Below, one piece after another: positions 23,668 to 45,140 of a DNA stretch of 64,000 nt (the first letter of the stretch is position 1; the number at the start of each line of letters is the position of its first letter). The translations under genes and the position numbers were made by a program. Location of the stretch: positions 1 through 64,000 of the forward strand of contig JAFYQF010000023.1 of the NCBI GenBank assembly GCA_017559905.1. Direction: 5' to 3'. The DNA is from a bacterium (GTDB taxonomy: Bacteria; Cyanobacteriota; Vampirovibrionia; Gastranaerophilales; Gastranaerophilaceae). The notes beneath the pieces were generated by a model that was not told the origin of the DNA, ran no database searches, and worked only from the letters and a program-made list of their open reading frames with translations.

Positions 23668-23739
23668 TCCTCAGTAGCTCAATGGCGGAGCAACCGGCTG
23701 TTAACCGGTAGGTTGTTGGTTCGAGTCCAACCTGGGGAG
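23668..23739 (+). tRNA. tRNA-Asn (anticodon GTT)
   Basis: Cloverleaf with acceptor TCCTCAG/CTGGGGA, anticodon stem ACCGG/CCGGT, loop CTGTTAA and T-loop TTCGAGT. CCA is not encoded. Confidence 0.85.
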
Positions 23740-25295
23740 TTTTTTAATGCAAAGTTTGCATAAGTGGTTTCAACCCCAGGTAGGACAGTCGTTTTCACGT
23801 TTCGATATTTAGAGTTTTTTTTTACTAATTCGAGTTGATTTTTTACTAAATCTTGGAAAAACGGTCGTAATTTTATGTCAAAATGCTTGTCTTTGTAAAG
23901 AATTGCTTCGGCAATTATATTAATTATTTTCTTACGCTGATGCATTGTCCCACGGATAAATAAATCATGTATGTTATCCAAGAAACCAAGCATAATCCCT
24001 GTATCATCATAAAACTGTTTTTCCAAGTCGTTAATTGTCTGAAGCTGTATCAAAAATCTTTCTTTTTCATCTTGCCATTTTTTATTAAACCTTACCCAAT
24101 CCTCATGGCTTATATTCCCATCAAGTTTTAATTCAATCGAGTTCTCAATACGATTTTCTAACTGCTCGATCTGTCTTTTAAGCGTTGCTTTCACCTCTTT
24201 TGTGTAGCCAAGTTTCTTTAGATGTTCTTCCCTTAAATCATCTGCGATAGTATCTCGCATCTCTTTAGGGATTACAATCAATTTAAGCACCTCTGCAAAG
24301 GCTCTATCAACCTTTTCTTCATTAATATAGTCTTGCTTACAAGTACCACCTTTATAGCCCGTACAATGGTAATAAACGTACCTGTAATTACCTTGTCTGT
24401 CTCTTTTGTTTTCTGCTGTAATTTGACAACCGCAATGCCCACAGTGCATTAAACCTGTATAAGCAAATTCCAAGTTATGTTTCTTTGATTTATTAGGGTC
24501 TCGTAACCTATCCTGAACCCTGTAAAATAAAGCTTTACTAATGATGGCTTTATGCTTACCATTATCATAGATCTTATTCATATACTTATAAGATCCAGTG
24601 TAGAATATGTTTTTGAGCATATACTCCACAGTACTACAAGGTATTGCTTTGCCATTTTGGTTTTTAAACCCATCTTCTTGCAATTTTTTAGTTAAAGTGT
24701 TTAGCGAATAAAGCCCACTGTCGTACAATTCAAATGCGCGCCTTACATATATGGCTCTATTTTCATCAATAACAATCGCTTTTGAACCATTAGGGTTTGT
24801 AACGTTAAGGTAACCTATTGGAGCAAGACTTGGATAATCACCTTGCTCTGCTTTTTGTTTTAGTGCAGCAACTGTTCTTGCAGCAATTACTTTTCTCTCG
24901 TACTCTGCAAAATTTATCCCAATGTTTCGCATCAAATCACCCTCTAAGGTATCTACATTGGCCTCTGTTGCAATAAGAAGTTGAATATCATTTTTGACAA
25001 ACAACGGCTTTAATATCCCGTGATAATCTGTATTACTTCTTGAAATTCTATCTAAACGCCAAACAACTACGGCTTTAACGTTGTTTTGTTTTTTCTTGCA
25101 ATAAGCGATTAAATCTTGAATATCCGGTCTTTCAAGATTCTTACCGGATTTACCATCATCTACAAAAATCTTGCTAACGTGATAACCATTCTTGCTCGCA
25201 AATTCAATGCAATCTTTCTTTTGCTTGTCAATACTCACACCAAGTTTGTTTCTGTCCTCGGCAGAAACACGTGCGTACACAACGGCTTTGTTCAT
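23679..25295 (-). CDS. Large serine recombinase (resolvase-N + recombinase + zinc-ribbon domains)
   Basis: The N-terminus 'VVYARVSAEDR...' has the serine-recombinase catalytic domain. A Cys cluster 'CGHCGC...YYHCTGYKGGTC' follows. The 3' ~20 codons overlap tRNA-Asn. Confidence 0.85.
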   Translation of the reverse strand: MNKAVVYARVSAEDRNKLGVSIDKQKKDCIEFASKNGYHVSKIFVDDGKSGKNLERPDIQDLIAYCKKKQNNVKAVVVWRLDRISRSNTDYHGILKPLFVKNDIQLLIATEANVDTLEGDLMRNIGINFAEYERKVIAARTVAALKQKAEQGDYPSLAPIGYLNVTNPNGSKAIVIDENRAIYVRRAFELYDSGLYSLNTLTKKLQEDGFKNQNGKAIPCSTVEYMLKNIFYTGSYKYMNKIYDNGKHKAIISKALFYRVQDRLRDPNKSKKHNLEFAYTGLMHCGHCGCQITAENKRDRQGNYRYVYYHCTGYKGGTCKQDYINEEKVDRAFAEVLKLIVIPKEMRDTIADDLREEHLKKLGYTKEVKATLKRQIEQLENRIENSIELKLDGNISHEDWVRFNKKWQDEKERFLIQLQTINDLEKQFYDDTGIMLGFLDNIHDLFIRGTMHQRKKIINIIAEAILYKDKHFDIKLRPFFQDLVKNQLELVKKNSKYRNVKTTVLPGVETTYANFALKNSPGWTRTNNLPVNSRLLRH

Positions 25296-25318
25296 TTGTT
25301 GTCCCTTTCTCTTTCGAT

Positions 25319-25498
25319 TTATATACTGTCCTTACCATTAAAAATATCTTGAAATACGCTAACAAAATTAACCAACAATTCTGCATTATCGATATCAGTT
25401 GTTTCTGTATCGCTTTCATATATTTGAATTGTCATTCCATCTCTTGTGTGCAATTTGTCTCCAATTAAAATAAAGTTTTCAAAATTTTCTACTCCCAT
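25319..25498 (-). CDS. Small acidic hypothetical protein (59 aa) immediately upstream of the recombinase
   Basis: Strong RBS (AAAGGAGAAA plus 5 nt, then ATG). It is co-oriented with and 23 bp upstream of the recombinase. Below the ORF-track size cut-off. Confidence 0.35.
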   Translation of the reverse strand: MGVENFENFILIGDKLHTRDGMTIQIYESDTETTDIDNAELLVNFVSVFQDIFNGKDSI

Positions 25499-26051
25499 AA
25501 TTTCTCCTTTATTTTAATAAGAAAATTTAGGAGTACTTAAAAAAGTGACGTATTCTTTAAGAAATCGGCACTTTTGAAAAATTTTTACAAATATTCTGGC
25601 GTAATTAAAAGCATGCTACAAGCCTCAGACATAGATTTTTTACAGAACTTCATGGAAAACATTACGCCCTTATAATAGAAGTCGGGAAATACCATTACGA
25701 ATTGCTGCAAGATTTCTAAAACAAAATTTGACAACAACTTGCCTCTACGCCAGACTTTCGATACCGAACTAGTATTATCAAGCGAGGTATCACTTGAAAG
25801 GGAAACAAATGCAGTGTCAATTACGTGATGGGAAAGTCGAATGCAACGATAGTAAAAAACAAATAAGTAATGGCGAATACTCCAAAGCCCATAAACACTT
25901 GTACCGAAGAATTAATGCACAAATGCGTTTACTAGACTACCAAGCAAGAATGAAGTATAGTAAACGTGAATTACAATAATTAAAATCAATATGTCCAAAA
26001 ATGACGCAACTTATTATTATACTATTAGATATAGAATAATTATGAGGACAT

Positions 26052-26906
26052 ATGATTTATTTAAACACTTTTTCTTTCCCAACGCTTGAAGATGAAAACG
26101 ACTTCAGATTTTCACAGAATAGAACTTGTTATACAAGCATTTATCCATATGGGATTTTGTCAAAAAATACAATTGAAAAACTAGTTTTTGAACCAATTAC
26201 TATTTTATACGGTGGAAATGGTTGCGGCAAAAGCACGGCTTTAAATGTTATTGCTGAAAAATTAAAACTTGAAAGAGATAACCTATACAACAAAAGTAAT
26301 TTTTTTAATGATTACAAAAAACGTTGTAGATATGAAACAAATGGCATTCCCACTCATAGCAGAATAATAACTAGCGATGATGTTTTTGATTTTACGATGA
26401 ATTTGAGATATTTAAATGAAGGACTAGATAGACAAAGAGAAAATCTTTTAGACGAAGCTTACCGAAGAAAAACTTATCAATTCAAGATGAAAAGCTTAGA
26501 TGATTATGATGAATTTAAAAGAAACATGATTGCACAACAAAAATCTCAATCTGAATTTGTAAGACAATATATGCTACCAAATGTTAAAGAACAATCAAAT
26601 GGGGAAAGTGGATTCATGTATTTTACGAGTAAAATTCAAAATGATGCGCTCTACTTACTTGATGAACCTGAAAACAGTCTTTCTCCAGAAAAGCAAAAAG
26701 AATTGCTACAATTTATTTATGATAGTGCTAGATTTTACAATTGCCAATTTATTATAGCTACGCATTCTCCATTTTTGTTGTCGATAAAAGATGCAAAAAT
26801 TTACGACTTCGATGAAACACCCGTTAAAGTAAAGCCTTGGACAGAATTAAAAAATGTTAGAGAATATTATAACTTTTTCAAACTGCACGAAAAAGATTTT
26901 ATTTAA
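26052..26906 (+). CDS. Soluble ABC/AAA_21-like ATPase
   Basis: Walker A 'GGNGCGKST', signature-like 'SNGESG', Walker B 'LYLLDEPENSL' and H-loop 'IATHSP' are all present. No TM segments. Confidence 0.75.
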   Translation: MIYLNTFSFPTLEDENDFRFSQNRTCYTSIYPYGILSKNTIEKLVFEPITILYGGNGCGKSTALNVIAEKLKLERDNLYNKSNFFNDYKKRCRYETNGIPTHSRIITSDDVFDFTMNLRYLNEGLDRQRENLLDEAYRRKTYQFKMKSLDDYDEFKRNMIAQQKSQSEFVRQYMLPNVKEQSNGESGFMYFTSKIQNDALYLLDEPENSLSPEKQKELLQFIYDSARFYNCQFIIATHSPFLLSIKDAKIYDFDETPVKVKPWTELKNVREYYNFFKLHEKDFI

Positions 26907-26994
26907 TAATTAAGTAGAATAGTTGCAATTAACAACCTAAATAAAATTTCAATTTATACTATTATATATTTATTAGCAATAAGGAGTTATCGTT

Positions 26995-27861
26995 ATGACA
27001 AAAATAGAAATTCTAAATGGTGATATAACAAAGTTAAAAGTCGATGCGATAGTTAATGCTGCCAATAAAAGTTTATTAGGTGGCGGTGGTGTTGATGGAG
27101 CAATTCATCGTGCTGCTGGACATAAACTTTTAGAAGAGTGCCAAACTCTGAATGGATGTGAAACAGGACAATCTAAAATAACCAAAGGTTACAACTTACC
27201 TGCAAAATTCGTTATACACACAGTAGGACCTGTTTGGTACGGAGGGAATAAAAATGAACGAGAAATGCTTAAATCTTGTTATCATACAGCATTAACTCTT
27301 GCCAAAGAAAATGGAGTTAAAACAATTGCATTCCCTGCAATTTCTTGTGGCGTTTACCGTTTTCCATTAGAAGAAGCTTGTGCCATTGCAACTGAAACTG
27401 TAAAAGACTTCATTTCAAACGACGACAGCTTTGAGAAAATAATTTTTATAGATATTAACGAAGAAATTATTAATCTATATTTAGATTTAAGTGATATAAA
27501 TTCCAGATGTCAAAAATTACCAAAAATTAAACCACAAGATTTTAAATGGGGTGGAGGATTTAAAAACTCTAAAGAAGGTGAAACACCACAATTTCCTTAC
27601 GTAATTTATACTGAAAATGTTCTCGAATGGGTTCGATGTTATTATAAATTAGAGTTAATAATGCCAAATTACGTTGAATACGTAAACAATGCAGATTTTC
27701 GAAATAAAAAATTCAAAAATTATTCAAGAAATGATATTCTAAATTTGCTAACATACTATATTCGCCAAGATAGATTTTGCGAAGGTCTGTTGGCTGGCAA
27801 AATCAAATCCGGTGAAGTAACTGAACTCGTTGACAGATTGCACGAAATAACAAAGGGATAG
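26995..27861 (+). CDS. Macro-domain (ADP-ribose-binding/processing) protein with ~115-aa C-terminal extension of unknown function
   Basis: '[27 protein letters not shown]' is the canonical macro signature, preceded by an AAGGAG RBS. The C-terminal region is unassigned. Confidence 0.8.
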
Positions 27862-27874
27862 GTGAACTTATGTA

Positions 27875-28240
27875 GAGAATATTTCTTTTCGGAAGTATTT
27901 ATTGTATAATTGTTTATGGCAGAATCGATAAGAACGATGAGCTATAGTTTCTTTTCGGAAGTATTTATTGTATAATCTAAAATGGTGTAGTATTCCATAG
28001 AACCGTGCTATAGTTTCTTTTCGGAAGTATTTATTGTATAATTAAGGCTGAATAGTGCTGAAGTCCATTACAGCTATAGTTTCTTTTCGGAAGTATTTAT
28101 TGTATAATCGCAAGTGAATTCACCGGTGACGCAAAACGGCTATAGTTTCTTTTCGAAAGTATTTATTGTATAATTAGAATTACATTACTGTTAAGAAAGG
28201 AGGCGCTATAGTTTCTTTTCGAAAGTATTTATTGTATAAT
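27875..28240 (+). CRISPR. CRISPR array: 6 x 36-bp repeats (GCTATAGTTTCTTTTCGGAAGTATTTATTGTATAAT), 5 x 30-bp spacers
   Basis: Repeats lie at 27875 (5'-degenerate), 27941, 28007, 28073, 28139 and 28205. Spacers are exactly 30 bp. Repeats 5-6 carry a G18A variant, and each repeat ends in TGTATAAT. Confidence 0.95.
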
Positions 28241-28286
28241 ACCAATCTTCCAAACCCAAAAGGCACAAGGGGATTGGTATTTTTTA
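28241..28286 (+). terminator. Hairpin plus T-run after last repeat (possible pre-crRNA terminator)
   Basis: accaatc...gattggt stem followed by ATTTTTTATT. Confidence 0.35.
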
Positions 28287-28325
28287 TTCAAAAAAATTAA
28301 AACAAAAGAAGTTGTTCTGCTCCTA

Positions 28326-28490
28326 TTAATAATTAGAAATATGAATTTGTGGATTTTCTAAAATGATTGTTCCAATATCTTCCATTGGAATTGTAACTTC
28401 GTCATCAGAATCGAGAGCTTGGTGTACAAGCTGTCGATTCTTGATATGAAGTTTGCAAGGATTTGAAAATAGTAAAGTTTTATAACTCAT
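28326..28490 (-). pseudogene. cas1: cas1 remnant (N-terminal 54 codons only)
   Basis: The translation 'MSYKTLLFSNPCKLHIKNRQLVHQALDSDDEVTIPMEDIGTIILENPQIHISNY*' resembles type II Cas1 N-termini (SpCas1 '...SKLSYKNNHLIF...EIDILLLETTDIVLTT'). Its ATG overlaps the cas9 stop in ATGA. The remaining ~250 codons and cas2 are absent. Confidence 0.6.
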
Positions 28491-31400
28491 TTATTTTTAA
28501 CCTTTTTTGTGTTCTTAAATTTTATATCTTGTCGTTTTTCTTTTTTTACTTCATGATAATTTCCTAATACATCAATTTGGTATTTTTTGAATGAATAAAC
28601 ACTTTTTACTGCAATTCTAATTATTTCCTTTTTCTTTGCTCCATCTTGTTCTATTACTGTAATACGAGCAGAATCAATATCAGTACTTTTGTAGTAATAA
28701 TATTTTATACTTTCTTCTTTTTCATCCTTATTTATTGAAATTAAGGTGTCTTTAAACAATGAAAATTTAAATTTATAGCTTTCATCCATTTCTAACCAAC
28801 CATCTTTACCATTAGATATAGCTTTATTCGGCAAAATTCCTTTTGCAAAGTCTGAAACATAGATTGGCACAAGATAAAATTCTTCTTTACCTTTTTTATT
28901 CTTTTTAGAAAACACGTCTACCCTTGGCATTGAATCATTATTGGCAAATCCATTATGAACTAATATGCCTGAAGTACCTTTTGATTTTATTTTTATTGTT
29001 TTAATTTCGTGAGGTTTTATTCCCGCTTGTTTTTTTACTTCTGACAATGGCATATAAACAGGCTCAGCAAAAGCTTTTTCTGGTTTATTATCAAACTGCT
29101 CTAGCCTTTCTTTTAAGAGGTTGTATACTACAATGTTTCTTTCTTTTTCGTGCATATCTTCCAATTTTTTTAAATCAATTTTTTGTATTGGTGTCTTTAA
29201 TGTTGTAAATCCTTCATCAAGATGTTTAGGACTACGAATGGTAGCTTCGTGTATACCGCCTGGAATTTTGTTCCTTGGAGCTCTTGATACGAAGATTTCA
29301 CCAATAGAATTTTCTAAATCTTCACTAAATGTTCCCCAAGGTTTTTTAAAACGAGGTTTCATATGGTTTATAAAATCATAGTTTTCACGTTGAGCAGATA
29401 TTGTCGATAAGAATTTAACCATACCTTTTGTCGAACAAGCTACAATTGTCGCATCAACTGCGTGATGCCTGTCATTTTCTTCTCTATCTTTATTTATACC
29501 CCATTGGTTTCTTAAAAACGCGGTAAGTGAGCCGTTTCTTGTCTCTACTTTTATATCAAGATTCGCTTGGATATAGTCTTTAATAAACACCGTTATGTAC
29601 CTTGTATCATTCAGATTTCTTGAAGAAAAGCCGTCGCTATCATCTTTAGAATAAGATTTTCTAATCAAACGATTTATTTTTGGCGATTTCAGGTTTAATG
29701 TTTTTATCCAAGCACAGTATTCTGTCCAATCAACTTTTGAGCCAAAATATTCGTAAGGGATTTTATTACCTTTCATTCTATTTTGGTCAGCTAAGCATAA
29801 TACTTTGTTGTTTAAACTATCATCGTAACATCTTGAGTAAGGAATTATGTGGTCTATATCGGTATAATTCTCATCACTTAATCGTCTTATATCAATAGCT
29901 TTTCTTGAATATGGACAAAAGCCTCCCTGTTCTTCCCAAAGTCTAAATCGTAATAAGTTATTTTTCGAATCTGGATTTACACCATGTTTAAAGCATCTTT
30001 GGCGGGCAAACTCTTTTTCTTTTCTAAAGTCTTCTTGACCGGATTTTATCTTATTACGTTCTTCAGCTGATTTACCTAAATCTCTTGCTGTCTCTATAAT
30101 AATCTTGTCAAATTTACCATATTCTCTTATAAGTGCATTTACTACTTTTCTAGTTTGAGAAATTGCTCGGTTAACAACAGGGTTTGTTGTTAGTTCACTT
30201 TGATCCAAAACTGGTAAATATTCTTTATTTTTTGAAACAATTGCATTTTTAAAATCATACCCAGCTTCAGCACAAGCTTCGTTATATTTTAAACCTTGTA
30301 ACATATAAGGTGTAATTTTTTGCATAGCTTTAATTGATAAATGCATAACTTTGCTAGCAGATAAATCTTTTATGCAATCTATAATTTCTTGTGCAATATC
30401 TTTATCTAATAATCGCTTTGTAATTGCTTCATCAGATTTTTCATAGGTTAGTGCAGTTGCAATTTCATTAAATAAAAGTTCTTTATTATTAAGATTGTCA
30501 AAATACTCATTACCGAATACTTTTATAATAGCTTTTTTAATCTCGTGGTATTTTTTTAATTCAATTAATGTTGCATCTTCTGGATTAATTTCCACCAATT
30601 CTCCCGTTTTTTTATCTTTAGTTTTTTTACCATACTGTAGCGTCTTATAACATATACTCTCTACAAGTCCTAATTCTTTACGAGCTTGTTTATAAGTAAG
30701 TTTTGCTTTTTGATGTGCAATATTAATTAAATCTTGAATTTGCTTTGGTGCCAAATCGACGGAAGTCCCGTCTTCTAAAATCAATTTAGTATTAACAAGT
30801 TTTTGTGTCGCAACAAAAATTTCTGCAGTATATGATGCTTTTGGAGCTCTTTTTTCGTCTTTTTCAAATTGGCAATTCCCAACCATGTTTTCCATTGACT
30901 GCAAAGGTCTTTGATAAAATGAGATTTTCATATATTCTTCTTCAAAATCTTTATTCGCAAATTCAGAGCCGAAACTTCTTTGTTTTTCAAATATGGTTTT
31001 TATTTCTTGTTCTAATAAATCTCTTGGTATTGAATTTTTATAATCGTCTCTTTTGTTTCTTTTGGCACTATGTTCATATATAGTTGCAAACATTTCACCA
31101 ACAGTTTGAAAATTGCCACCTTCAAACTGTTGCTTATTTTCACTTATACATTTTAATAAATTACCCTCAGTCTTTGCTTCTTCACTCTTTCTAATTGATT
31201 TAAACCCTCTGCGTTTTGCAATTTGATGAAGTACTCTATAAAATTCTTCTATTGTTAATTCCCTTGATAAAGCCTCTTTTCTTAAAATCCAAGTATCAAT
31301 TCTTTTTGTATTGTTATGAAAAAGATTTGAAATATCATTCTCTGATAAATATTTATTAGCAATAAATAACTGTTTTATTGCTCTTAACCTATAAGCTCGT

Positions 31401-31594
31401 CTTGATAAACGGCGTCTAGCACCCCGAAAAATCCTACGTTCAGCATTTAAAGGAGCTTTAGTTTTAGCTACTTCGCAAGCTTCAAAAGTTCTAACACCAG
31501 TTTTTAAAATTTCACCATTAAAATTTTCGTCATCATAATTTATTACAGAAAAACCTATTGATGCAATACCAATATCAAGACCTAAAATTTTCAT
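28487..31594 (-). CDS. cas9: Cas9 (type II-C-sized, 1035 aa), nuclease-competent
   Basis: Present are RuvC-I 'ILGLDIGIASIGFSV', an Arg-rich bridge helix, RuvC-II 'IIIETARD', HNH 'DIDHIIPYS...NNKVLC...NRMKGNK' and RuvC-III 'HHAVDATIV'. Confidence 0.95.
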   Translation of the reverse strand: MKILGLDIGIASIGFSVINYDDENFNGEILKTGVRTFEACEVAKTKAPLNAERRIFRGARRRLSRRAYRLRAIKQLFIANKYLSENDISNLFHNNTKRIDTWILRKEALSRELTIEEFYRVLHQIAKRRGFKSIRKSEEAKTEGNLLKCISENKQQFEGGNFQTVGEMFATIYEHSAKRNKRDDYKNSIPRDLLEQEIKTIFEKQRSFGSEFANKDFEEEYMKISFYQRPLQSMENMVGNCQFEKDEKRAPKASYTAEIFVATQKLVNTKLILEDGTSVDLAPKQIQDLINIAHQKAKLTYKQARKELGLVESICYKTLQYGKKTKDKKTGELVEINPEDATLIELKKYHEIKKAIIKVFGNEYFDNLNNKELLFNEIATALTYEKSDEAITKRLLDKDIAQEIIDCIKDLSASKVMHLSIKAMQKITPYMLQGLKYNEACAEAGYDFKNAIVSKNKEYLPVLDQSELTTNPVVNRAISQTRKVVNALIREYGKFDKIIIETARDLGKSAEERNKIKSGQEDFRKEKEFARQRCFKHGVNPDSKNNLLRFRLWEEQGGFCPYSRKAIDIRRLSDENYTDIDHIIPYSRCYDDSLNNKVLCLADQNRMKGNKIPYEYFGSKVDWTEYCAWIKTLNLKSPKINRLIRKSYSKDDSDGFSSRNLNDTRYITVFIKDYIQANLDIKVETRNGSLTAFLRNQWGINKDREENDRHHAVDATIVACSTKGMVKFLSTISAQRENYDFINHMKPRFKKPWGTFSEDLENSIGEIFVSRAPRNKIPGGIHEATIRSPKHLDEGFTTLKTPIQKIDLKKLEDMHEKERNIVVYNLLKERLEQFDNKPEKAFAEPVYMPLSEVKKQAGIKPHEIKTIKIKSKGTSGILVHNGFANNDSMPRVDVFSKKNKKGKEEFYLVPIYVSDFAKGILPNKAISNGKDGWLEMDESYKFKFSLFKDTLISINKDEKEESIKYYYYKSTDIDSARITVIEQDGAKKKEIIRIAVKSVYSFKKYQIDVLGNYHEVKKEKRQDIKFKNTKKVKNK

Positions 31595-31619
31595 ATATCA
31601 CTCCTTAAATATTTTATTA

Positions 31620-31648
31620 TTGACAGTCTAAACTTTGTTTGTTATCAT
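31620..31648 (+). promoter_or_regulatory. Sigma-70 promoter of tracrRNA (TTGACA-17bp-TATCAT)
   Basis: The -35 is at 31620-31625 and the -10 at 31643-31648. The anti-repeat begins ~4-8 nt downstream. Confidence 0.55.
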
Positions 31649-31651
31649 ACG

Positions 31652-31745
31652 ATTGTACAATAAATACTTTCGAAACGTTACTATAGTAAGAAGTTTTCGA
31701 AAAGTTTCTAGCAGATACATTTTAATATGTATCTGCTATCTTTTA
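31652..31745 (+). ncRNA. tracrRNA
   Basis: The anti-repeat at 31652-31690 can pair with 33 of 36 repeat positions (including G-U pairs) with a 3-nt internal mismatch. A palindromic TTTTCGAAAA hairpin follows. The terminator is agcagataca-ttttaata-tgtatctgct followed by ATCTTTT. Confidence 0.75.
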
Positions 31746-31747
31746 GT

Positions 31748-32143
31748 TTATTTTTCATTATTTTCTTTTGCAAAATTTGCAGTATCTTGAATTAATTTTA
31801 TAGCCTTATTACTATCGTGCATTTCTTGCCCATACAAAACAATGTTATCTTCAAAATAATTCCCGTGCAGTTCAATTACATTTTTTGAACCTGCTTTTGT
31901 ATGTAAATTATCGACATTCATTGTAATAATTGGAATATCTAATTCTGCAAGGATTTTGTGTGCCTTTGTTGGTTCTCGGTCTTTAACGTTATTTATAAGC
32001 AAATCAATTGCGTCTTTAAACTCTTTTGGATATTGTTCTTTAAATTCAACGGACAATTTTTCTTTAATTCCAGGTATTTCCTCAAATGTTGGAATACCAG
32101 CTGATTTTGAAATTCCTGCACCTGTAAAAGCTATTATTTTCAT
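31748..32143 (-). CDS. Mini Sir2-like protein (131 aa)
   Basis: 'GAGISKSAGIPTF', 'ITMNVDNLHTKAG' and 'IELHGN' match the sirtuin NAD-binding and catalytic-His core. The Zn-ribbon module and C-terminal half are missing. An AGGAGG RBS is present. Confidence 0.65.
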   Translation of the reverse strand: MKIIAFTGAGISKSAGIPTFEEIPGIKEKLSVEFKEQYPKEFKDAIDLLINNVKDREPTKAHKILAELDIPIITMNVDNLHTKAGSKNVIELHGNYFEDNIVLYGQEMHDSNKAIKLIQDTANFAKENNEK

Positions 32144-32432: not shown

Positions 32433-32750
32433 ATGGAACAACAAAAGAAGTATCAAGTTGATTTGTACATTGGATTATTAGCCCCCGATGATTTTATGCA
32501 ACATTTTACCGTTAAAAAAGCAGTTGACACAATAACAGAAGTCATTGGAGATTGCACAATTATACCTTGTATTGGTTCTTGTTCACATACGACAGGTATA
32601 AGAATAAATTTAAACACTTTAAAAATAACAAAATTTATTGATTATGCACCAGAACAATTGATAAACAAAGTCGAAAAACTAAAGAAAATCTTTAATCAAT
32701 ATGAAATTCTTATGAATACCATAAAATGTGATAATTTTAGAATTATTTAA
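32433..32750 (+). CDS. Hypothetical protein (105 aa)
   Basis: ORF with an AAAGGAG RBS and no recognisable motif. Confidence 0.45.
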   Translation: MEQQKKYQVDLYIGLLAPDDFMQHFTVKKAVDTITEVIGDCTIIPCIGSCSHTTGIRINLNTLKITKFIDYAPEQLINKVEKLKKIFNQYEILMNTIKCDNFRII

Positions 32751-33217: not shown

Positions 33218-33832
33218 TTAGAATTTACTTGCTTTCGCACGTGCTTGCAATTCTGCTATTAATTCTTCGGTTGAAAATTCACTTAAACCAGGACTTGTAT
33301 TTTCAAACATATTGCATATAACTTCCGAATACACATCCGGACGCATATTGGCATACTGTTCTAAGATAGTTTCAACTTCCCAATGCCCAATATTTTGGCT
33401 TAGTGCTTTCAATTCTTTACCTGTATGAGCTTTTTCTAAGCCTTTACTTACCATGTAATGTCTAAACGAATGAGGATTATAATCCTTTATGCCAGCTTGC
33501 CTACACATCTTTTTGATGATCTCATTATATTTCGTATTGCTATAATTTTTGTTAACCAATTGAACACCAGATGCATAATTCTTTATCTGTGGGAATAAAA
33601 GGATTTTATTTCCCGAAATATTAGATTTAACATATTCGACCCATTCTTTCAGATACTGCAAATACATTTTATCCAAAACCATAAATCTTGTATAAATTAG
33701 TTTGTCTAATTTTGTGTGAGTATCTTCTAAAGGATCCTGTTTTACCATCAACTTTTGAAAGTCAATCAAATTTATTGTAATAGTCGCAACAGCATCAATT
33801 CTTGCAGCTGTTAACAACATATACGAAATCAA
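33218..33832 (-). pseudogene. Tyrosine recombinase/integrase, N-terminally truncated (catalytic domain only)
   Basis: Box I 'LLTAARIDAV', 'HSFRHYMVS' and 'GHWEVETILEQYANM' cover the R..HxxR..Y catalytic residues. The N-terminal core-binding domain is absent and the fragment abuts a Fic fragment on the opposite strand. Confidence 0.7.
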
Positions 33833-35874: not shown

Positions 35875-36032
35875 AAAAATCATCTACTCGCTTAATCATC
35901 CATAGTATTTCTTGCATACTTGGTTCAAAAAATCTTTTGTATAAAGTTTCAATGAATGCTTCCCAACTCTCGCAGGATGGGGAGTTTTTTAATGTCAAAT
36001 TTAAAGCGAGGTTTGTCCTCGCTTTTTGTTAC
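35875..36032 (+). repeat. Direct repeat copy A (~160 bp, ~92% identical to copy B); contains att-like core and a terminator hairpin
   Basis: Aligns base-for-base with 38044-38200. It includes gcgagg...cctcgc followed by TTTTT. Confidence 0.8.
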
Positions 36033-36042
36033 TTATCAGTGA

Positions 36043-36837
36043 TTAAATTTTAGGTTTACTTCTGTAATATCCTTTGACTTCGGTTCCATCTGTACGTGTA
36101 TATGAATTTACATATACAACTCCACCACCTGTTTTCGCTTCGAGCTCTAAATCTTTGTTTGTTGGCATTGTTCCCTTAAAAACTCGAATTTGAGCATCTA
36201 TTTCTTTTTCATGTTTTGCAAATTCTTCTTTGCTCATAGAACCAACTTCCTCACGTGTATATATATGATTGCTCCCTGTTAATGGGTTCGCGTAACCATA
36301 TAAACTAGTTTGATCTTCTTGGCAATCATTTTTTATACCTGTAACGTTTGAAACATCATAACCCTCAAATTTTTTCATGTAATTTTCAACACTTGTACCA
36401 AAGGCATCTCTAGGAATATTTTTCCCATCACTTTGCAGATATTCTTTGACTGCTCCAGGTCCTTTGAGATGTGCAGCCGCAAGTAAACCTGATTGAGTTA
36501 CCTTTACCCCATTAATTTCTTTACCAATGTACTTATCGGCTCCAATGGCTTTTAGTTGTTCCCATTGAACCTGCTTGAATGCTTTTTGCGCATTTTCTTG
36601 TGCCTGTTTGTTTTTTAAAAAATCTTCAATGCTATATACACCATCTTTGCCTGTAAATTGACCTGTCCAATCATTATTATATCTGCCTGATGCCTTTTTA
36701 TAGTAGCCTGCATCTATCATTGCGGCTTCACCCATTTGATATTTACCGATGTAGCCGTATTTATTTATAGAGGAATAATTACCTCCAGATTCTCTTGCTC
36801 CTAAATCATTATAAAATTCATCTAAGGTTTTTGTCAT
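36043..36837 (-). CDS. Lytic transglycosylase (SLT)-like domain protein
   Basis: 'ARESGGNYSSINKYGYIGKYQMG' resembles the SLT catalytic-Glu motif (E-S...GLMQ). Confidence 0.5.
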   Translation of the reverse strand: MTKTLDEFYNDLGARESGGNYSSINKYGYIGKYQMGEAAMIDAGYYKKASGRYNNDWTGQFTGKDGVYSIEDFLKNKQAQENAQKAFKQVQWEQLKAIGADKYIGKEINGVKVTQSGLLAAAHLKGPGAVKEYLQSDGKNIPRDAFGTSVENYMKKFEGYDVSNVTGIKNDCQEDQTSLYGYANPLTGSNHIYTREEVGSMSKEEFAKHEKEIDAQIRVFKGTMPTNKDLELEAKTGGGVVYVNSYTRTDGTEVKGYYRSKPKI

Positions 36838-38046: not shown

Positions 38047-38200
38047 AAATCATCTATACGCTTAATCATCCAAAGTATGTCTTGCATACTTGGTTCAAAA
38101 AATCTTTTGTACAAGGTTTCAATGAATGCTTCCCAACTCTCGCAGGAGATGGAGTTTTTTATTGTCAAAATTAAAGCGAGGTTTGTCCTCGCTTTTGTTT
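38044..38200 (+). repeat. Direct repeat copy B
   Basis: See copy A. The core here reads GATGGAGTTTTTTATTG (degenerate). Confidence 0.8.
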
Positions 38201-38257
38201 TGACTAAAAATTGCAAAAAGGATTTGAAGTTGTTTCAAATCCTTTTTTATATATTTA

Positions 38258-38740: not shown

Positions 38741-39020
38741 AATTTCCTCCTATATTAAATCTTGCGATTTTTGCATTAAACCTCTTTTGTTTTGTATATA
38801 CGGCTTAATTTGGCAAAACTTCTATGAAATTATTATTCGTATAAAATCCTTTCATAAAGATACTTCCTTCTTATTTTTAACACGCTATATTAGCCTAGAA
38901 ATCATTTAAAAAGGTGAAAACAAGAAATAAATATAAATTCGTTATATTAAATCAATAATCCCAAAATCATTTATACCCTTAACACTTCGCTCAATATTGG
39001 TTTTGTTGTATAATTAACAC

Positions 39021-40298
39021 ATGCTAAATTTATTCAAACAGGGACATCCAAAAGGATTATTTTTATTATTCTGCGTAGAAATGTGGGAAAGATTCTCTTA
39101 TTACGGTATGAGAGCCCTTATTGTGCTTTACATGGTACAAGAACTTTTATATTCAGCTCAAAAAGCTGGCAATATTTATGGGCTTTATACAGGGTTAGTT
39201 TATCTTACACCACTTATTGGTGGCTATCTTGCGGACAGATATTTCGGGCAAAGAAAATGCATCTCAGTTGGCGCATTATTCATGATAATAGGTTTATTTC
39301 TTTTAGCATTTGGACCTAAAACATTATTTTTATTAGCGTTATTTTTCATGATTGTTGCTAACGGGTTTTTCAAATCTAACATCAGCTCTGTACTTGGACT
39401 TTTGTACGAAAATGATACTGACAAAAAAGATTCTGGATACACTATTTTTTATATGGGTATAAATTTAGGGGCATTTTTTTCCCCTCTAATTTGTGGAACA
39501 CTTGCTGTCAAATACGGCTATGAATACGGTTTTGCTGCGGCTGGTATAGGAATGCTTGTAGGATTTATTTTATATAAATGTTTAGAAAACAAATTGCTTG
39601 GCGATTATGGAACGTTTCCTGCAATCAATAAAACTTCTGACTCCAGTCAAACAGTAGATGAATCAAATAATAATCAACAATTATTTGCCCTTGTTGTTTT
39701 AATGCTATTTACAATTCCATTTTGGGTATGTTTTGAACAGGCAGGTTCATCGTTAACATTTTTTGCAGAATACCAAACAAATAGAAATTTCTTCGGATTA
39801 GAAATTCCAACAGGATATTTTCAATCACTGAACCCATTATTTATAATCACGCTTGCACCTTTAGTGTCAGCATTTTGGGGCATTTTAAGAAGCAAACAGA
39901 AAGAGCCAACTTCAGTTGAAAAATTCACAATTTCATTATTTTTAATCTCAATATCTTTTGTTATTTTAGCATTTGCAGGATTTTTAGCAGGTACAGGTAA
40001 AGTTTCACCGCTTTGGCTTGTTGCCGGATACTTCATTATGACAATAGCTGAACTTTGTCTTTCTCCAATAGGACTGTCGCTTGTTTCAAAACTTGCACCT
40101 AGGAAATTTTTATCACTTTTGATGGGATGTTGGTTTTTAACCAATTTTGCTGGCAACCTAATTGCTGGGATATGGGGCGGTAGTTACGAAACAATATCGA
40201 CAACAAAACTATTCGGCGGACTTGCTGTTTTATCATTTTCGGCGTGTTTATTGTTACTTTGTTTTATATCAAAGCTTAACAACGCCCTAAAAAGATAA
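39021..40298 (+). CDS. Proton-dependent oligopeptide transporter (POT/PTR2, DtpT-like)
   Basis: 'GLFLLFCVEMWERFSYYGMRALIVLYM' is the POT family signature. ~12 TM segments. Confidence 0.85.
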   Translation: MLNLFKQGHPKGLFLLFCVEMWERFSYYGMRALIVLYMVQELLYSAQKAGNIYGLYTGLVYLTPLIGGYLADRYFGQRKCISVGALFMIIGLFLLAFGPKTLFLLALFFMIVANGFFKSNISSVLGLLYENDTDKKDSGYTIFYMGINLGAFFSPLICGTLAVKYGYEYGFAAAGIGMLVGFILYKCLENKLLGDYGTFPAINKTSDSSQTVDESNNNQQLFALVVLMLFTIPFWVCFEQAGSSLTFFAEYQTNRNFFGLEIPTGYFQSLNPLFIITLAPLVSAFWGILRSKQKEPTSVEKFTISLFLISISFVILAFAGFLAGTGKVSPLWLVAGYFIMTIAELCLSPIGLSLVSKLAPRKFLSLLMGCWFLTNFAGNLIAGIWGGSYETISTTKLFGGLAVLSFSACLLLLCFISKLNNALKR

Positions 40299-40352
40299 TC
40301 TGTAGTAGCAAAAAATTTTAATCACAAGCCTTATAAATTTAGGATTAAAAAT

Positions 40353-41483
40353 ATGCGCACAACAAACACAACTTCAGCATCTCATAATACACCAAACTTT
40401 ACCGCAAAGATTAGACTTTGTGACAAAGGTCTGCTTGATTTGAACCACAACCAAAAATTGTTAACTCAACAATCTCCAATGGACTTTTTCTATGATGTGT
40501 CTAGCACAAAGACAAATCTTGACCTATTTATCAGAAAGCTTAAAAGCACAATTAGAAAATATCAAAACAACGAAAACAATTCAGAATTCAAAAAAAAGCT
40601 CCTAAAAAAAAGTTTCATTGTAGTTAACGATTTGAGCACCTTAATAAACAAATGCGCAATACTAAAAAACATTCCTGAAGTATACAAATCAAACAAATTG
40701 TTAAAGAAAACTTCACCAGAAAAAGCAAACTACATTGATACTTGGGCGATTTTTGGGAATTCCACCCCAAACAAAACTATAAACATAAACATTGAAGACA
40801 AAAGAATTGAAGATATAGCAAACTTAAAAGACTCTACAATCTTCATAATGAACCACGACAATGTTGTTCGAGACAGATTCATTTATCCTATACTTAATTC
40901 TTTTTTGAATTATGCATACGCAACTTTAAACAGACAAGCGGACTGTCCAAGACCTTACATTGTAGTCAGCAAGAACGTAGTTAAGAATGCTGGCAACAAA
41001 ACTATGCAAAATATCTTCAGAAAAGTAGGGTTGGTATCGGTCGACGCTCATTTAACCGAAAGAAAGCACTCCGAAAACATAAAACCTGTAAAAGCAATGA
41101 TTGAAAATTTCATTGATGATAAAGCGAATATTTTTATTTTCCCAGAAGGCAATAATTCAATATTCAAAGACAAAAGTTTAAAAGAAAAATTCCAGCTCGG
41201 TTTTATTAAAATCCTTAAAATGATCTCAGAGAAAAAAGAATCCATCAACATAATTCCAATTGGAATTACATACCCTGCAGATAAAAAAAGTATGGGAAAT
41301 ATATTCATAGGTGAAGTTTTGAAATTGAATAGAGAAGAAAAGATTTGGAGCTTAACCACACCTTCAGGAACTGAACCAATCGGCAAAGTTACCGACAAAG
41401 ACACCTTAAAGCATTTGTCAGACACTTTAGCAAACCAGCTTGAAAAATGCGTAACTGCTAGCAAAGCGCTTGAAATTGATTAA
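40353..41483 (+). CDS. Putative lysophospholipid acyltransferase-like protein
   Basis: 'IMNHDNVVRD' is H(X)nD-like and 'IFPEGNNS' resembles the FPEGTR motif. Support is weak. Confidence 0.35.
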   Translation: MRTTNTTSASHNTPNFTAKIRLCDKGLLDLNHNQKLLTQQSPMDFFYDVSSTKTNLDLFIRKLKSTIRKYQNNENNSEFKKKLLKKSFIVVNDLSTLINKCAILKNIPEVYKSNKLLKKTSPEKANYIDTWAIFGNSTPNKTININIEDKRIEDIANLKDSTIFIMNHDNVVRDRFIYPILNSFLNYAYATLNRQADCPRPYIVVSKNVVKNAGNKTMQNIFRKVGLVSVDAHLTERKHSENIKPVKAMIENFIDDKANIFIFPEGNNSIFKDKSLKEKFQLGFIKILKMISEKKESINIIPIGITYPADKKSMGNIFIGEVLKLNREEKIWSLTTPSGTEPIGKVTDKDTLKHLSDTLANQLEKCVTASKALEID

Positions 41484-42986: not shown

Positions 42987-43098
42987 TCAGCAGCCTCCAT
43001 TACACTTTTATTCACATATTTACGAAGAATTTAACATAAAACTTTAAACATTTTAAAGTTTTATTAAGTATAAAATTTCATGTGCTAAAATATAAGTT

Positions 43099-43452
43099 AT
43101 GATTAAACTGATTAAAAAAATTTTTCAACATGAAAAACATATAGAGGGAATCTGCAATTCAAAGAAGTGCAAAGCTTGTTGTTGCTATACTGTTCCTCTT
43201 CCTCAAAAAACTATTGATGAAAACAAAGACAAAATAATTAATCCTATTATCTCAATTGAACCAATAGGAGAATCTGACGAATATAACGGCTACAATGTCC
43301 TAGCAATGACAGACAAAAGCCCTGCAAAAAGCAAATGTCCATTTTTGAGAGCTGATTATTTATGCAATATCTATGATGTTCGCCCAAACCTTTGCCGACT
43401 ATTCGGCACAATTCAAGAAGAAGGCGACCAGTACTGCAGGTTTATGAAATAG
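43099..43452 (+). CDS. YkgJ-family Cys-cluster (CxxCxxCC) protein
   Basis: 'CNSKKCKACCCY' is present, followed by 'CPFL...CNIYDVRPNLCRLFG'. Confidence 0.6.
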   Translation: MIKLIKKIFQHEKHIEGICNSKKCKACCCYTVPLPQKTIDENKDKIINPIISIEPIGESDEYNGYNVLAMTDKSPAKSKCPFLRADYLCNIYDVRPNLCRLFGTIQEEGDQYCRFMK

Positions 43453-43453
43453 C

Positions 43454-44155
43454 TTATTTCGCAAGTTTTTCAAGTAAAATTTTTGCATTTTCATAAACTG
43501 GACCAACACCATATTTTTCGTATATAGCCATTGATTCAGTCAATTCTTGTCTTGCCAAACTTGGATCTTTTTCAGCTAAAAACTTACCAATATCATATTT
43601 TACAGAAGCTAATTTAACCTCATAAACACCAACCGGTTTCATTTTTCTGGCAACTGTATTGTGACGTTTCTGAACATTATTATAATTTTTCACAATATCA
43701 TTTAATGCTCGTTTTTCAGTGTACAAAACATTCAAATACTTATCGCTTGCTGGTGCTGTTACTTTATAAATTTCTTTTAAATCATTTGCTCTAGCCATAA
43801 TATGCACAGGGTCGTGCTGACGTTTTGCAATAGCAAGAGCACTTGTTGCGAAATCTTCTACTAGCTTCGCATTACCTTCGTTAAATTTGATAAGAAAACT
43901 GTAAATAATTCCCGCTAAATTATTATCACCTAGCGACACAACTTTTTCAGCTAGCATTTTGCAAGCATTGTTTAATACGCCTTTTTTATCTTTCTTTTCA
44001 AAGTTAATCCCCAACACAGTTAATTCTTCTGAAAACTCTGCAGGTTTGATTTCGGCTTTTTTAGATACAGCTTTAATGGTTTTTTCAGAAAATATATTCA
44101 ATGACTTATTCAAATCTTTATTATTAATATTAGCTTTAGAGAAAGAAACTTTCAT
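43454..44155 (-). CDS. Hypothetical protein
   Basis: 233-aa ORF. Confidence 0.45.
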   Translation of the reverse strand: MKVSFSKANINNKDLNKSLNIFSEKTIKAVSKKAEIKPAEFSEELTVLGINFEKKDKKGVLNNACKMLAEKVVSLGDNNLAGIIYSFLIKFNEGNAKLVEDFATSALAIAKRQHDPVHIMARANDLKEIYKVTAPASDKYLNVLYTEKRALNDIVKNYNNVQKRHNTVARKMKPVGVYEVKLASVKYDIGKFLAEKDPSLARQELTESMAIYEKYGVGPVYENAKILLEKLAK

Positions 44156-44156
44156 A

Positions 44157-44462
44157 TTATACTCCTTTGTTATTAATTTTATTAATCTTATAATGTCTTA
44201 AACGCAACACTCTTTTGAGTATTTCAATCATTTCAGGACGATATTGTTCTGCAAGATAAGAAAATTGTTTTCTTCGCTTTAAGAAAAAACAAGTTCCAAT
44301 ACCGAAGAATACAGAAGGCACAGCTTCATGAGAAACAGCCGCATTTGCAGCTATACCAAAATTAAGAGCCGCCATACCTGTAACTATTGATTTTGATTTT
44401 ACTATATTTTTAAATTGTCTATTTATTGCATTTCCTTTTTGGAAAGCGGGTATCCGTAACAT
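44157..44462 (-). CDS. Small membrane protein, hypothetical
   Basis: 101-aa ORF abutting the upstream gene; hydrophobic. Confidence 0.4.
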   Translation of the reverse strand: MLRIPAFQKGNAINRQFKNIVKSKSIVTGMAALNFGIAANAAVSHEAVPSVFFGIGTCFFLKRRKQFSYLAEQYRPEMIEILKRVLRLRHYKINKINNKGV

Positions 44463-44489
44463 GTGTAAATCCTTTTTGTTATTTGTTTA

Positions 44490-45140
44490 TTAAAAGAAAT
44501 CTGGTAAATATTTTTCTAAAATTTCATTTATTTTTGCGGTTTCTTCTTTTGAAAGCTGTTCATCTTCAATAGTTGAGCCATCCTTATTTTTTATTAATTT
44601 AGTAATTTTACCTTCCTGATAATTAAAGCCCCAATGGTTCGCATTTTTTGTATTAACTCTAAATGACATAAGCCCATTAGTTTTATTTTTTTGAATTCGT
44701 TTAAACTCAAGATGTTCATCCTTTTCTAACAATTTAATCTTTGAAGGAACTTTTTCATCAACAATATATTCTTTCAATCTAAAAAGAACACAATCACCCC
44801 AATCATTTTTGTGATAAGTGAGTTGAGTTCCATCAGGCAAATAAAGGTTATAACGACGGCCAACTGTTTTGAGCAGATTAGGTAAAAGCCACTTACCATC
44901 ACCTTTAAATCCAATTACAGGAGATTCTTCATTTAGTTTTTGCAGCATTTTCAATACTTTTTCAGAAACAAAGCCATCTTTAGAGGTGAAACTTACCAAA
45001 TCTGATACACTCGGTTTTAGTTTAACATTTTCTCTATTATTAATATGCGAAAAATCATTCACATAACTCGTTTTTATATTGTTGACTGGTAATAACATTT
45101 CAAAAGTTTCTCCATTAATACTAATAGTTAAACATAACAT
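44490..45140 (-). CDS. Hypothetical protein
   Basis: 216-aa ORF. Confidence 0.45.
   Translation of the reverse strand: MLCLTISINGETFEMLLPVNNIKTSYVNDFSHINNRENVKLKPSVSDLVSFTSKDGFVSEKVLKMLQKLNEESPVIGFKGDGKWLLPNLLKTVGRRYNLYLPDGTQLTYHKNDWGDCVLFRLKEYIVDEKVPSKIKLLEKDEHLEFKRIQKNKTNGLMSFRVNTKNANHWGFNYQEGKITKLIKNKDGSTIEDEQLSKEETAKINEILEKYLPDFF

Follow-up and report, generated by a model that had tools for sequence, protein, structure and literature searches.

Two adjacent genes on the forward strand of contig JAFYQF010000023.1 (assembly GCA_017559905.1, a bacterium of the cyanobacteriotal family Gastranaerophilaceae) are the subject of this analysis. They occupy positions 26052 to 27861 of a stretch of 64,000 nucleotides, referred to here as the window. 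The upstream open reading frame (ORF1) encodes an ABC-superfamily ATPase, and the downstream one (ORF2) encodes a protein that joins a macro domain to the Pfam domain DUF6508. Both proteins were already named at NCBI, as "AAA family ATPase" (MBR5555688.1) and "O-acetyl-ADP-ribose deacetylase" (MBR5555689.1). An initial annotation of the sequence had placed a macro gene 88 bp behind an ATPase gene, and the ORF coordinates, strand, and spacing were all confirmed. It had also taken the pair for a two-gene module, a claim that did not survive comparison with other genomes: a macro gene lies beside 1 of 80 sampled ATPase loci, the ATPase is found in none of six other Macro-DUF6508 lineages, and a recombination breakpoint falls in the spacer between the two genes. 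We consider it likely that the ATPase and the macro protein are functionally independent neighbors in a mosaic defense island at a tRNA-Asn gene, with the macro protein acting as an ADP-ribose eraser. The genes and their parts are the following.

26052-26906, + strand: ATPase ORF (ORF1), 284 aa, stand-alone ABC-superfamily protein (AAA_21/AAA_15)
26211-26234, + strand: Walker A of the ATPase
26595-26609, + strand: SNGES signature of the ATPase
26649-26672, + strand: Walker B of the ATPase
26760-26768, + strand: H-loop of the ATPase
26907-26994, + strand: ATPase/macro spacer, 88 bp, with the left breakpoint of the recently exchanged macro module at about 26960
26995-27861, + strand: Macro-DUF6508 ORF (ORF2), 288 aa
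26995-27483, + strand: MacroD/YmdB-type macro domain (residues 1-163 of 288)
27511-27852, + strand: DUF6508 (PF20118), residues 173-286 of the macro protein

The ATPase scored above both relevant Pfam cut-offs (AAA_21, 59.7 bits; AAA_15, 55.2 bits). In a family alignment of 30 sequences, the Walker A motif (G54-G55-N56-G57-x-G59-K60), the ABC signature (S182-N183-G184-E185-S186), Walker B (L202-L203-D204-E205), and the H-loop (T237-H238-S239) were all invariant. These four motifs and the ABC fold place the protein in the ABC superfamily, in agreement with its earlier description as a soluble ABC/AAA_21 ATPase. The family counts thousands of database homologues at 60-70% identity and occurs in at least 589 species-representative genomes, mainly of Lachnospiraceae and other Bacillota; viral contigs are almost free of it (five distant loci). 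It is thus a very large, uncharacterized family of stand-alone ABC ATPases of Bacillota of about 285 aa, some variants of which reach 377 aa through a C-terminal extension of about 90 aa that carries no functional clue. The initial annotation was to be abandoned if the ATPase proved to belong to a housekeeping family by HMM, and no such NCBIfam family matched it above cut-off. The PADLOC matches of this protein, with PtuA and AriA, were only of the generic ABC-ATPase kind and for the most part limited to about 50 C-terminal residues, and PHROGs gave a named function to neither the ATPase nor the macro protein. The ATPase would be an ATP-driven dimerizing switch or clamp on some ligand, working without the macro protein.

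The identity of the macro domain is clear from several comparisons. The protein matched Pfam Macro at 160.9 bits (cut-off, 22) and exceeded, at 220.5 bits, the cut-off of 200 for the O-acetyl-ADP-ribose deacetylase equivalog of NCBIfam (NF001664). Its best PDB sequence matches were MACROD2, MACROD1, and Escherichia coli YmdB, with E values of 1e-46 to 1e-52 over residues 2-164. MacroD domains are defined by the motifs N-x(6)-GG-[VLI]-D and G-[VIA]-[YF]. Among 14 aligned homologues, residues N21, N24, G29-G32, D34, H38, G119, and Y121 were invariant, and the NAAN motif and the C-G-V-Y loop were conserved. Both the family HMM cut-off and the catalytic and ADP-ribose-binding motifs therefore assign the domain to the MacroD/YmdB family, and the canonical macro domain and the link to ADP-ribosylation that had been proposed earlier hold for this protein. 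It is predicted from its intact catalytic motifs to be a MacroD-type hydrolase. Enzymes of this type hydrolyze ester-linked ADP-ribose, for example in O-acetyl-ADP-ribose, on mono-ADP-ribosylated Asp/Glu side chains, and in phosphate-linked ADP-ribose on nucleic acids. The protein shares the macro fold family, the motifs, and the HMM equivalog with YmdB and MACROD1/2 but differs from them in its C-terminal DUF6508; unlike YmdB, it is encoded in a mobile defense island rather than at a housekeeping locus, within a module that has recently been exchanged horizontally. No PADLOC model, DarG included, matched it at an E value of 0.01 or lower.

The C-terminal part of the macro protein, about 115 aa that had been left unassigned at first, is Pfam DUF6508 (PF20118): the score was 65.8 bits (cut-off, 23.6), and the match spans positions 11-127 of the 129-position profile. 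Residues Y226, T253, R257, R260, F261, G264, and G273 are nearly invariant in this domain, and the conserved Arg pair suggests phosphate binding. A homologue search with DUF6508 alone gave a single fragment. When a profile was run against 1.84 billion representative proteins, it produced 764 hits, most of them proteins of 115-135 aa that consist of DUF6508 by itself. When the architectures of 22 multidomain representatives were scanned, DUF6508 was joined to Macro in five, to the ADP-ribosylhydrolase (ARH) domain ADP_ribosyl_GH in four (in either domain order), and to NADAR in one; GIY-YIG, a BFD-like [2Fe-2S] domain, and DUF6794 accompanied it in one each, and the remaining nine contained no other Pfam domain. 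Furthermore, at least 23 of 60 metagenome loci encoded ARH-DUF6508 fusions. WYL/WCX, GmrSD, HsdM, and Abi families were enriched among the neighbors of DUF6508 genes, and a scan with a narrower alignment located DUF6508 at three loci in viral contigs. DUF6508 is a small helical module whose fusions to Macro, ARH, and NADAR hydrolases are independent of one another; these fusions, with the defense-type neighborhoods, tie it to the removal of ADP-ribose. It may serve as an accessory module of ADP-ribose erasers, probably for substrate targeting or ligand sensing. A full-text literature search for "DUF6508" returned no paper, and its tie to ADP-ribosyl hydrolases appears to be unreported in the searchable literature. 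Of all the parts of this locus, the link between DUF6508 and the hydrolases is the one that deserves follow-up.

Two side observations concern these relatives. Among the DUF6508 architectures that the metagenome scan turned up, ARH-DUF6508 was the most frequent, in proteins of about 445-459 aa (L104, L113, L117, L121, L122, and others in L099-L156). A WYL/WCX regulator stood directly upstream of several ARH-DUF6508 genes, and stand-alone DUF6508 genes were seen beside HsdM, GmrSD, and Abi genes.

The conservation of the pair was assessed from both sides. From the ATPase side, 80 loci with 6-kb flanks were sampled out of the at least 589 genomes with the family. By tblastn, an adjacent macro gene was present at one of them (L041), and DUF6508 was near the ATPase at none of the 80. 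Clustering of the flanking ORFs placed the commonest neighbor family at no more than 9 of the 80 loci. The 143 ORFs directly adjoining the ATPase were a miscellany (GNAT, 6; HTH_3, 6; DUF1508, 4; MatE, 3; and others), and only about 4 of them matched PADLOC models. The two closest homologues on contigs long enough to show neighbors lacked a macro neighbor: one at 83% identity (L011) is followed by two ORFs of unknown function, and one at 69% (L010) lies between EF-Ts and RibD. The same was true of the homologues in Blautia schinkii (63%) and on a Paraclostridium plasmid (57%). The most frequent tight neighbor of the ATPase was a lineage-restricted 105-aa protein, encoded upstream at 7 of the 80 loci at a median distance of 13 bp (L033 1759-2076 and six similar cases). 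Two adjacent ORFs that were scanned matched Pfam DNA_binding_1, the DNA-binding domain of 6-O-methylguanine DNA methyltransferase.

From the other side, the full Macro-DUF6508 architecture is confined to about a dozen clusters. Six other lineages with this architecture were read (P0124, P0132, P0127, the P0126-like L097/L098, P0125, and P0133), and the ATPase was found in none of the six. In four of them, a DUF4186 gene lay 3-9 bp downstream of the Macro-DUF6508 gene, as listed below.

L003, 6873-7211: DUF4186 gene after Macro-DUF6508
L005, 6915-7256: DUF4186 gene after Macro-DUF6508
L160, 4870-5226: DUF4186 gene after Macro-DUF6508
L097, 1204-1557: DUF4186 gene after Macro-DUF6508
L098, 5366-5719: DUF4186 gene after Macro-DUF6508

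Macro-DUF6508 and DUF4186 thus form a pair that is conserved across lineages. DUF4186 is the family of E. coli YneG; the window contains no DUF4186 gene.

The history of the locus itself was revealed by two related contigs. L162, from a related organism, carries the PTR2-transporter gene and downstream core genes at about 74% nucleotide identity to window positions 39007-41311 and 43068-44880. In contrast to these core flanks, 518 bp at its macro gene match window positions 26960-27477 at 96.5%, which indicates recent horizontal exchange. The match starts 54 bp past the ATPase stop codon and 35 bp before the macro ATG, and it ends at the macro/DUF6508 junction; these limits put a recombination breakpoint inside the 88-bp spacer. 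The encoded protein (L162 850-1575; P0131, 241 aa; also P0197) has about 98% amino acid identity to the window protein across approximately the first 155 macro residues, and past the junction it has an unrelated Cys-rich C-terminal domain of about 75 aa (CARCDNEYSCMGCC) instead of DUF6508. No ATPase gene was present in the approximately 850 bp of contig upstream of the L162 macro gene. The macro module has therefore moved or recombined recently on its own, with one breakpoint in the spacer. The second contig, L164, is a 97.5%-identical variant of the island that retains the ATPase and Macro-DUF6508 and lacks window positions 23967-25857, which hold most of a serine recombinase gene. Directly after its macro stop codon, where the window has CRISPR-Cas9, it encodes the R subunit of a type I restriction system (HsdR, at least 615 aa, L164 2332-4176). 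The defense cargo has here been exchanged behind the macro stop codon, where the breakpoint is fixed. The locus thus documents both the shuffling of whole genes, with CRISPR-Cas9 replaced by type I restriction-modification (R-M), and the exchange of a single domain, in which a 98%-identical macro domain carries a Cys-rich tail instead of DUF6508.

The island around the two genes contains the following features.

23668-23739, + strand: tRNA-Asn(GTT), found by ARAGORN and as Rfam tRNA (66.6 bits); left island edge
23679-25295, - strand: large serine recombinase (Pfam Resolvase, Recombinase, and Zn_ribbon_recom; PHROG integrase, E 1e-90)
27876-28243, no strand assigned: CRISPR array of six 36-bp repeats with 66-bp periodicity (Tandem Repeats Finder and repeat search)
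28487-31594, - strand: Cas9, 1035 aa (Pfam HNH_4, RuvC_III, and Cas9_RuvC)
31650-31686: tracrRNA-like anti-repeat, an inverted repeat 86-89% complementary to the CRISPR repeat
31748-32143, - strand: SIR2-family ORF, 131 aa, SIR2 profile positions 1-115 of 180

The 3' end of the recombinase gene overlaps the tRNA-Asn gene, and the CRISPR array starts 15 bp past the stop codon of the macro gene, so the two genes sit between a tRNA-associated recombinase and a CRISPR array as had been reported. No direct repeat of the tRNA 3' end was found to mark the right boundary of the island, and its right edge could only be estimated, at about 38-39 kb, on the basis of the core genes syntenic with L162 (74% identity). 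The locus is a variable defense island at tRNA-Asn; the earlier proposal of a defense island is borne out by CRISPR-Cas9 in the window and by the type I HsdR in the 97.5%-identical variant. As an observation on the cargo, positions 27876-31686 make up a minimal type II CRISPR-Cas locus on the integrated element, with Cas9, a 54-aa ORF, the six-repeat array, and the anti-repeat. Neither cas1 nor cas2 was found at this locus, which therefore has no adaptation module. The "Sir2" neighbor of the initial annotation stands as a SIR2-family ORF and not as an intact gene: it is an N-terminal fragment of 131 aa, apparently without the zinc module, and its end lies 62 bp away from the anti-repeat of the tracrRNA. 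It is probably a truncated remnant.

Several observations speak against reading the two genes as independent. They are co-directional, and a terminator scan of the 88-bp spacer found no sites, so that they may be co-transcribed. They are kept together in two variants of the island, and a second, independent ATPase-then-Macro adjacency exists in L041 beside an AbiEi/AbiEii pair, when a rough estimate of one macro gene per about 3000 genes predicts only about 0.05 such adjacencies by chance in 80 loci. Most of the ATPase loci sampled are from Lachnospiraceae, at 56-64% identity, with closer relatives on short contigs; we know of no biochemical function for the ATPase family; and the function ascribed to DUF6508 comes solely from domain fusions and gene neighborhoods. 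The shared direction, the joint retention, and the L041 adjacency could be accommodated by a rare but genuine two-gene defense or counter-defense system, in which the ATPase would sense infection or a modified target and Macro-DUF6508 would be the effector or regulator. Such a system would be in keeping with the roles of AAA_21/AAA_15 ATPases in Septu, PARIS, and Gabija, with the weak PADLOC matches to PtuA and AriA, and with the retention of the pair in L164 while the downstream cargo changes. However, this co-retention weighs little because the two variants differ by only about 2.5%. The synteny counts from both sides and the breakpoint within the spacer run counter to such a system, as do the two unrelated ORFs that follow the closest informative ATPase homologue (83%), the ATPase neighborhoods that are mostly not defense-related, and the failure of the macro protein to match any PADLOC model. 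Lack of synteny in other genomes had been named beforehand as a ground for giving up the pairing, and the pair is indeed not conserved. We therefore hold a two-gene system to be very unlikely, and the synteny counts and the mosaicism lead us to attribute the adjacency to the shuffling of island modules. The claim of a new ATPase-Macro defense system does not hold, and showing this averts a false lead.

Two further explanations concern the macro protein by itself. It could be an entirely ordinary YmdB-like housekeeping enzyme caught in a variable region, with DUF6508 as a neutral addition and no link to genetic conflict. Hundreds of stand-alone YmdB-like proteins of about 167 aa share 80-86% identity with its macro domain, and the L162 module adjoins core genes for the PTR2 transporter and an acyl-ACP thioesterase. 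Nevertheless, the recurrence of DUF6508 on three unrelated ADP-ribosyl hydrolase folds, the WYL, GmrSD, HsdM, and Abi genes beside DUF6508 genes, and the recent horizontal exchange of the macro module argue against neutrality, and we regard this explanation as unlikely. MacroD-type enzymes also deacetylate O-acetyl-ADP-ribose, the product of sirtuins, and the macro protein could accordingly be the deacetylase or reversal partner of the neighboring Sir2, in the style of sirtuin-macro operons; the SIR2-family ORF is 3.9 kb away in the same island, and the NCBIfam name agrees with a deacetylase role. But this ORF is a fragment, it runs on the opposite strand, and both Cas9 and the array lie between it and the macro gene. 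Moreover, no SIR2 family occurs among the called genes around Macro-DUF6508 in L003-L007 and L158-L161, and L162 has the same macro module without Sir2. A partnership with Sir2 is, in our judgment, extremely improbable.

The locus was also compared with named systems, and it matches known kinds of components rather than a new system. AAA_21/AAA_15 ATPases are sensor or motor parts in Septu, PARIS, and Gabija. The ATPase reached 33 bits against the NCBIfam PtuA cut-off of 500; its best matches to PtuA and to PDB entries are confined to about 50-65 residues at the C terminus, and the PADLOC hits that span the full length are weaker (E about 1e-12 to 1e-13) and show no more than a general ABC resemblance. 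At 284 aa it is also shorter than PtuA, AriA, and GajA, which have 450-550 aa or more. Septu was rejected on the missed PtuA cut-off and on the neighbor of the ATPase, which is Macro-DUF6508 and no HNH PtuB; PARIS, in which AriB is a Toprim or DUF4435 protein, on the partial AriA matches and on a neighborhood with no Toprim protein; and Gabija, on an ATPase with no Toprim domain and no adjacent gene for a UvrD-like helicase (GajB). A macro domain in a defense context recalls DarTG, and this candidate was discarded as well: no ART-like ORF is present in 23.7-32.2 kb, the macro domain is of the MacroD type, and the DarG model was unmatched. Thoeris combines a SIR2 or Macro ThsA that has a SLOG domain with a TIR-domain ThsB; here the SIR2 fragment matches ThsA only at an E value of 0.002 (14.8 bits), and no TIR protein was found. 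A sirtuin-macro operon of the SirTM type does not fit the size, strand, and distance of the SIR2 fragment, with Cas9 in between. A literature search for "AAA_21" with "macro domain" returned no paper.

Under the preferred reading of independent neighbors, the macro gene would encode a self-contained ADP-ribose eraser, a MacroD-type domain with DUF6508, the latter supplying targeting or ligand sensing. Since no transferase or intact sirtuin is coupled to the macro protein, the enzyme that makes the marks is placed elsewhere; the protein would remove ADP-ribose added by, plausibly, a phage or toxin ADP-ribosyltransferase. Phages can attack by ADP-ribosylation, one example being AcrIF11-like ADP-ribosyltransferases that act on Cas or restriction proteins. 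It is a tentative possibility that DUF6508 is an undescribed targeting or sensor module, common to the three superfamilies of ADP-ribosyl hydrolases (Macro, ARH, and NADAR), that marks island-borne erasers of phage ADP-ribosylation. Macro-DUF6508 beside CRISPR-Cas9 or type I R-M would then be counter-counter-defense, and the ATPase would be unrelated to it. The DUF6508 link thus offers a concrete candidate for a little-explored idea, that of dedicated bacterial erasers directed against phage ADP-ribosylation.

The eraser account fits a proposal in section 3.8 of Iyer et al. 2022 (PMC9503650), where ARG-centric host systems are suggested to counter viral ADP-ribosylation. As far as the passages covered go, that template shares with the macro protein an enzyme that takes off ADP-ribose and to which neither a transferase nor an intact sirtuin is coupled, and with the ARH-DUF6508 relatives the WYL/WCX regulators, often upstream, and the nearby defense genes. 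It differs in its hydrolase, which in those passages is ARG/ARH and here is Macro, and the present locus has no WYL or Nudix regulator and no phosphatase or chaperone gene of the kind described there. DUF6508 is absent from the passages covered.

Other observations were made on individual loci and on the island. In L041, a Lachnospiraceae metagenome-assembled genome, the segment 4489-7009 encodes in one direction DUF6088 (presumably AbiEi-like), AbiEii, the ATPase homologue, which overlaps the AbiEii stop codon, and the macro gene; the last starts 58 bp after the ATPase, and the contig ends 100 bp into it. An intergenic repeat of about 70-90 bp with a terminator-like hairpin end (AAAGCGAGG-TTTGT-CCTCGCTTTT) occurs in the window at 35945-36030 and 38110-38215 and recurs just upstream of the L162 macro gene (L162 696-765). 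Inside the island, a SAM riboswitch (Rfam RF00162, 32259-32342, + strand; 54.6 bits against a gathering score of 44.4) precedes a 105-aa ORF without a family match (32433-32750, + strand), an unusual cargo for an S-box leader. A tyrosine-integrase fragment of 204 aa (33218-33832, - strand) and a 264-aa protein that matches a phage baseplate-hub/tail-lysozyme PHROG (36043-36837, - strand) suggest remnants of further mobile elements in the variable region of 24-39 kb.

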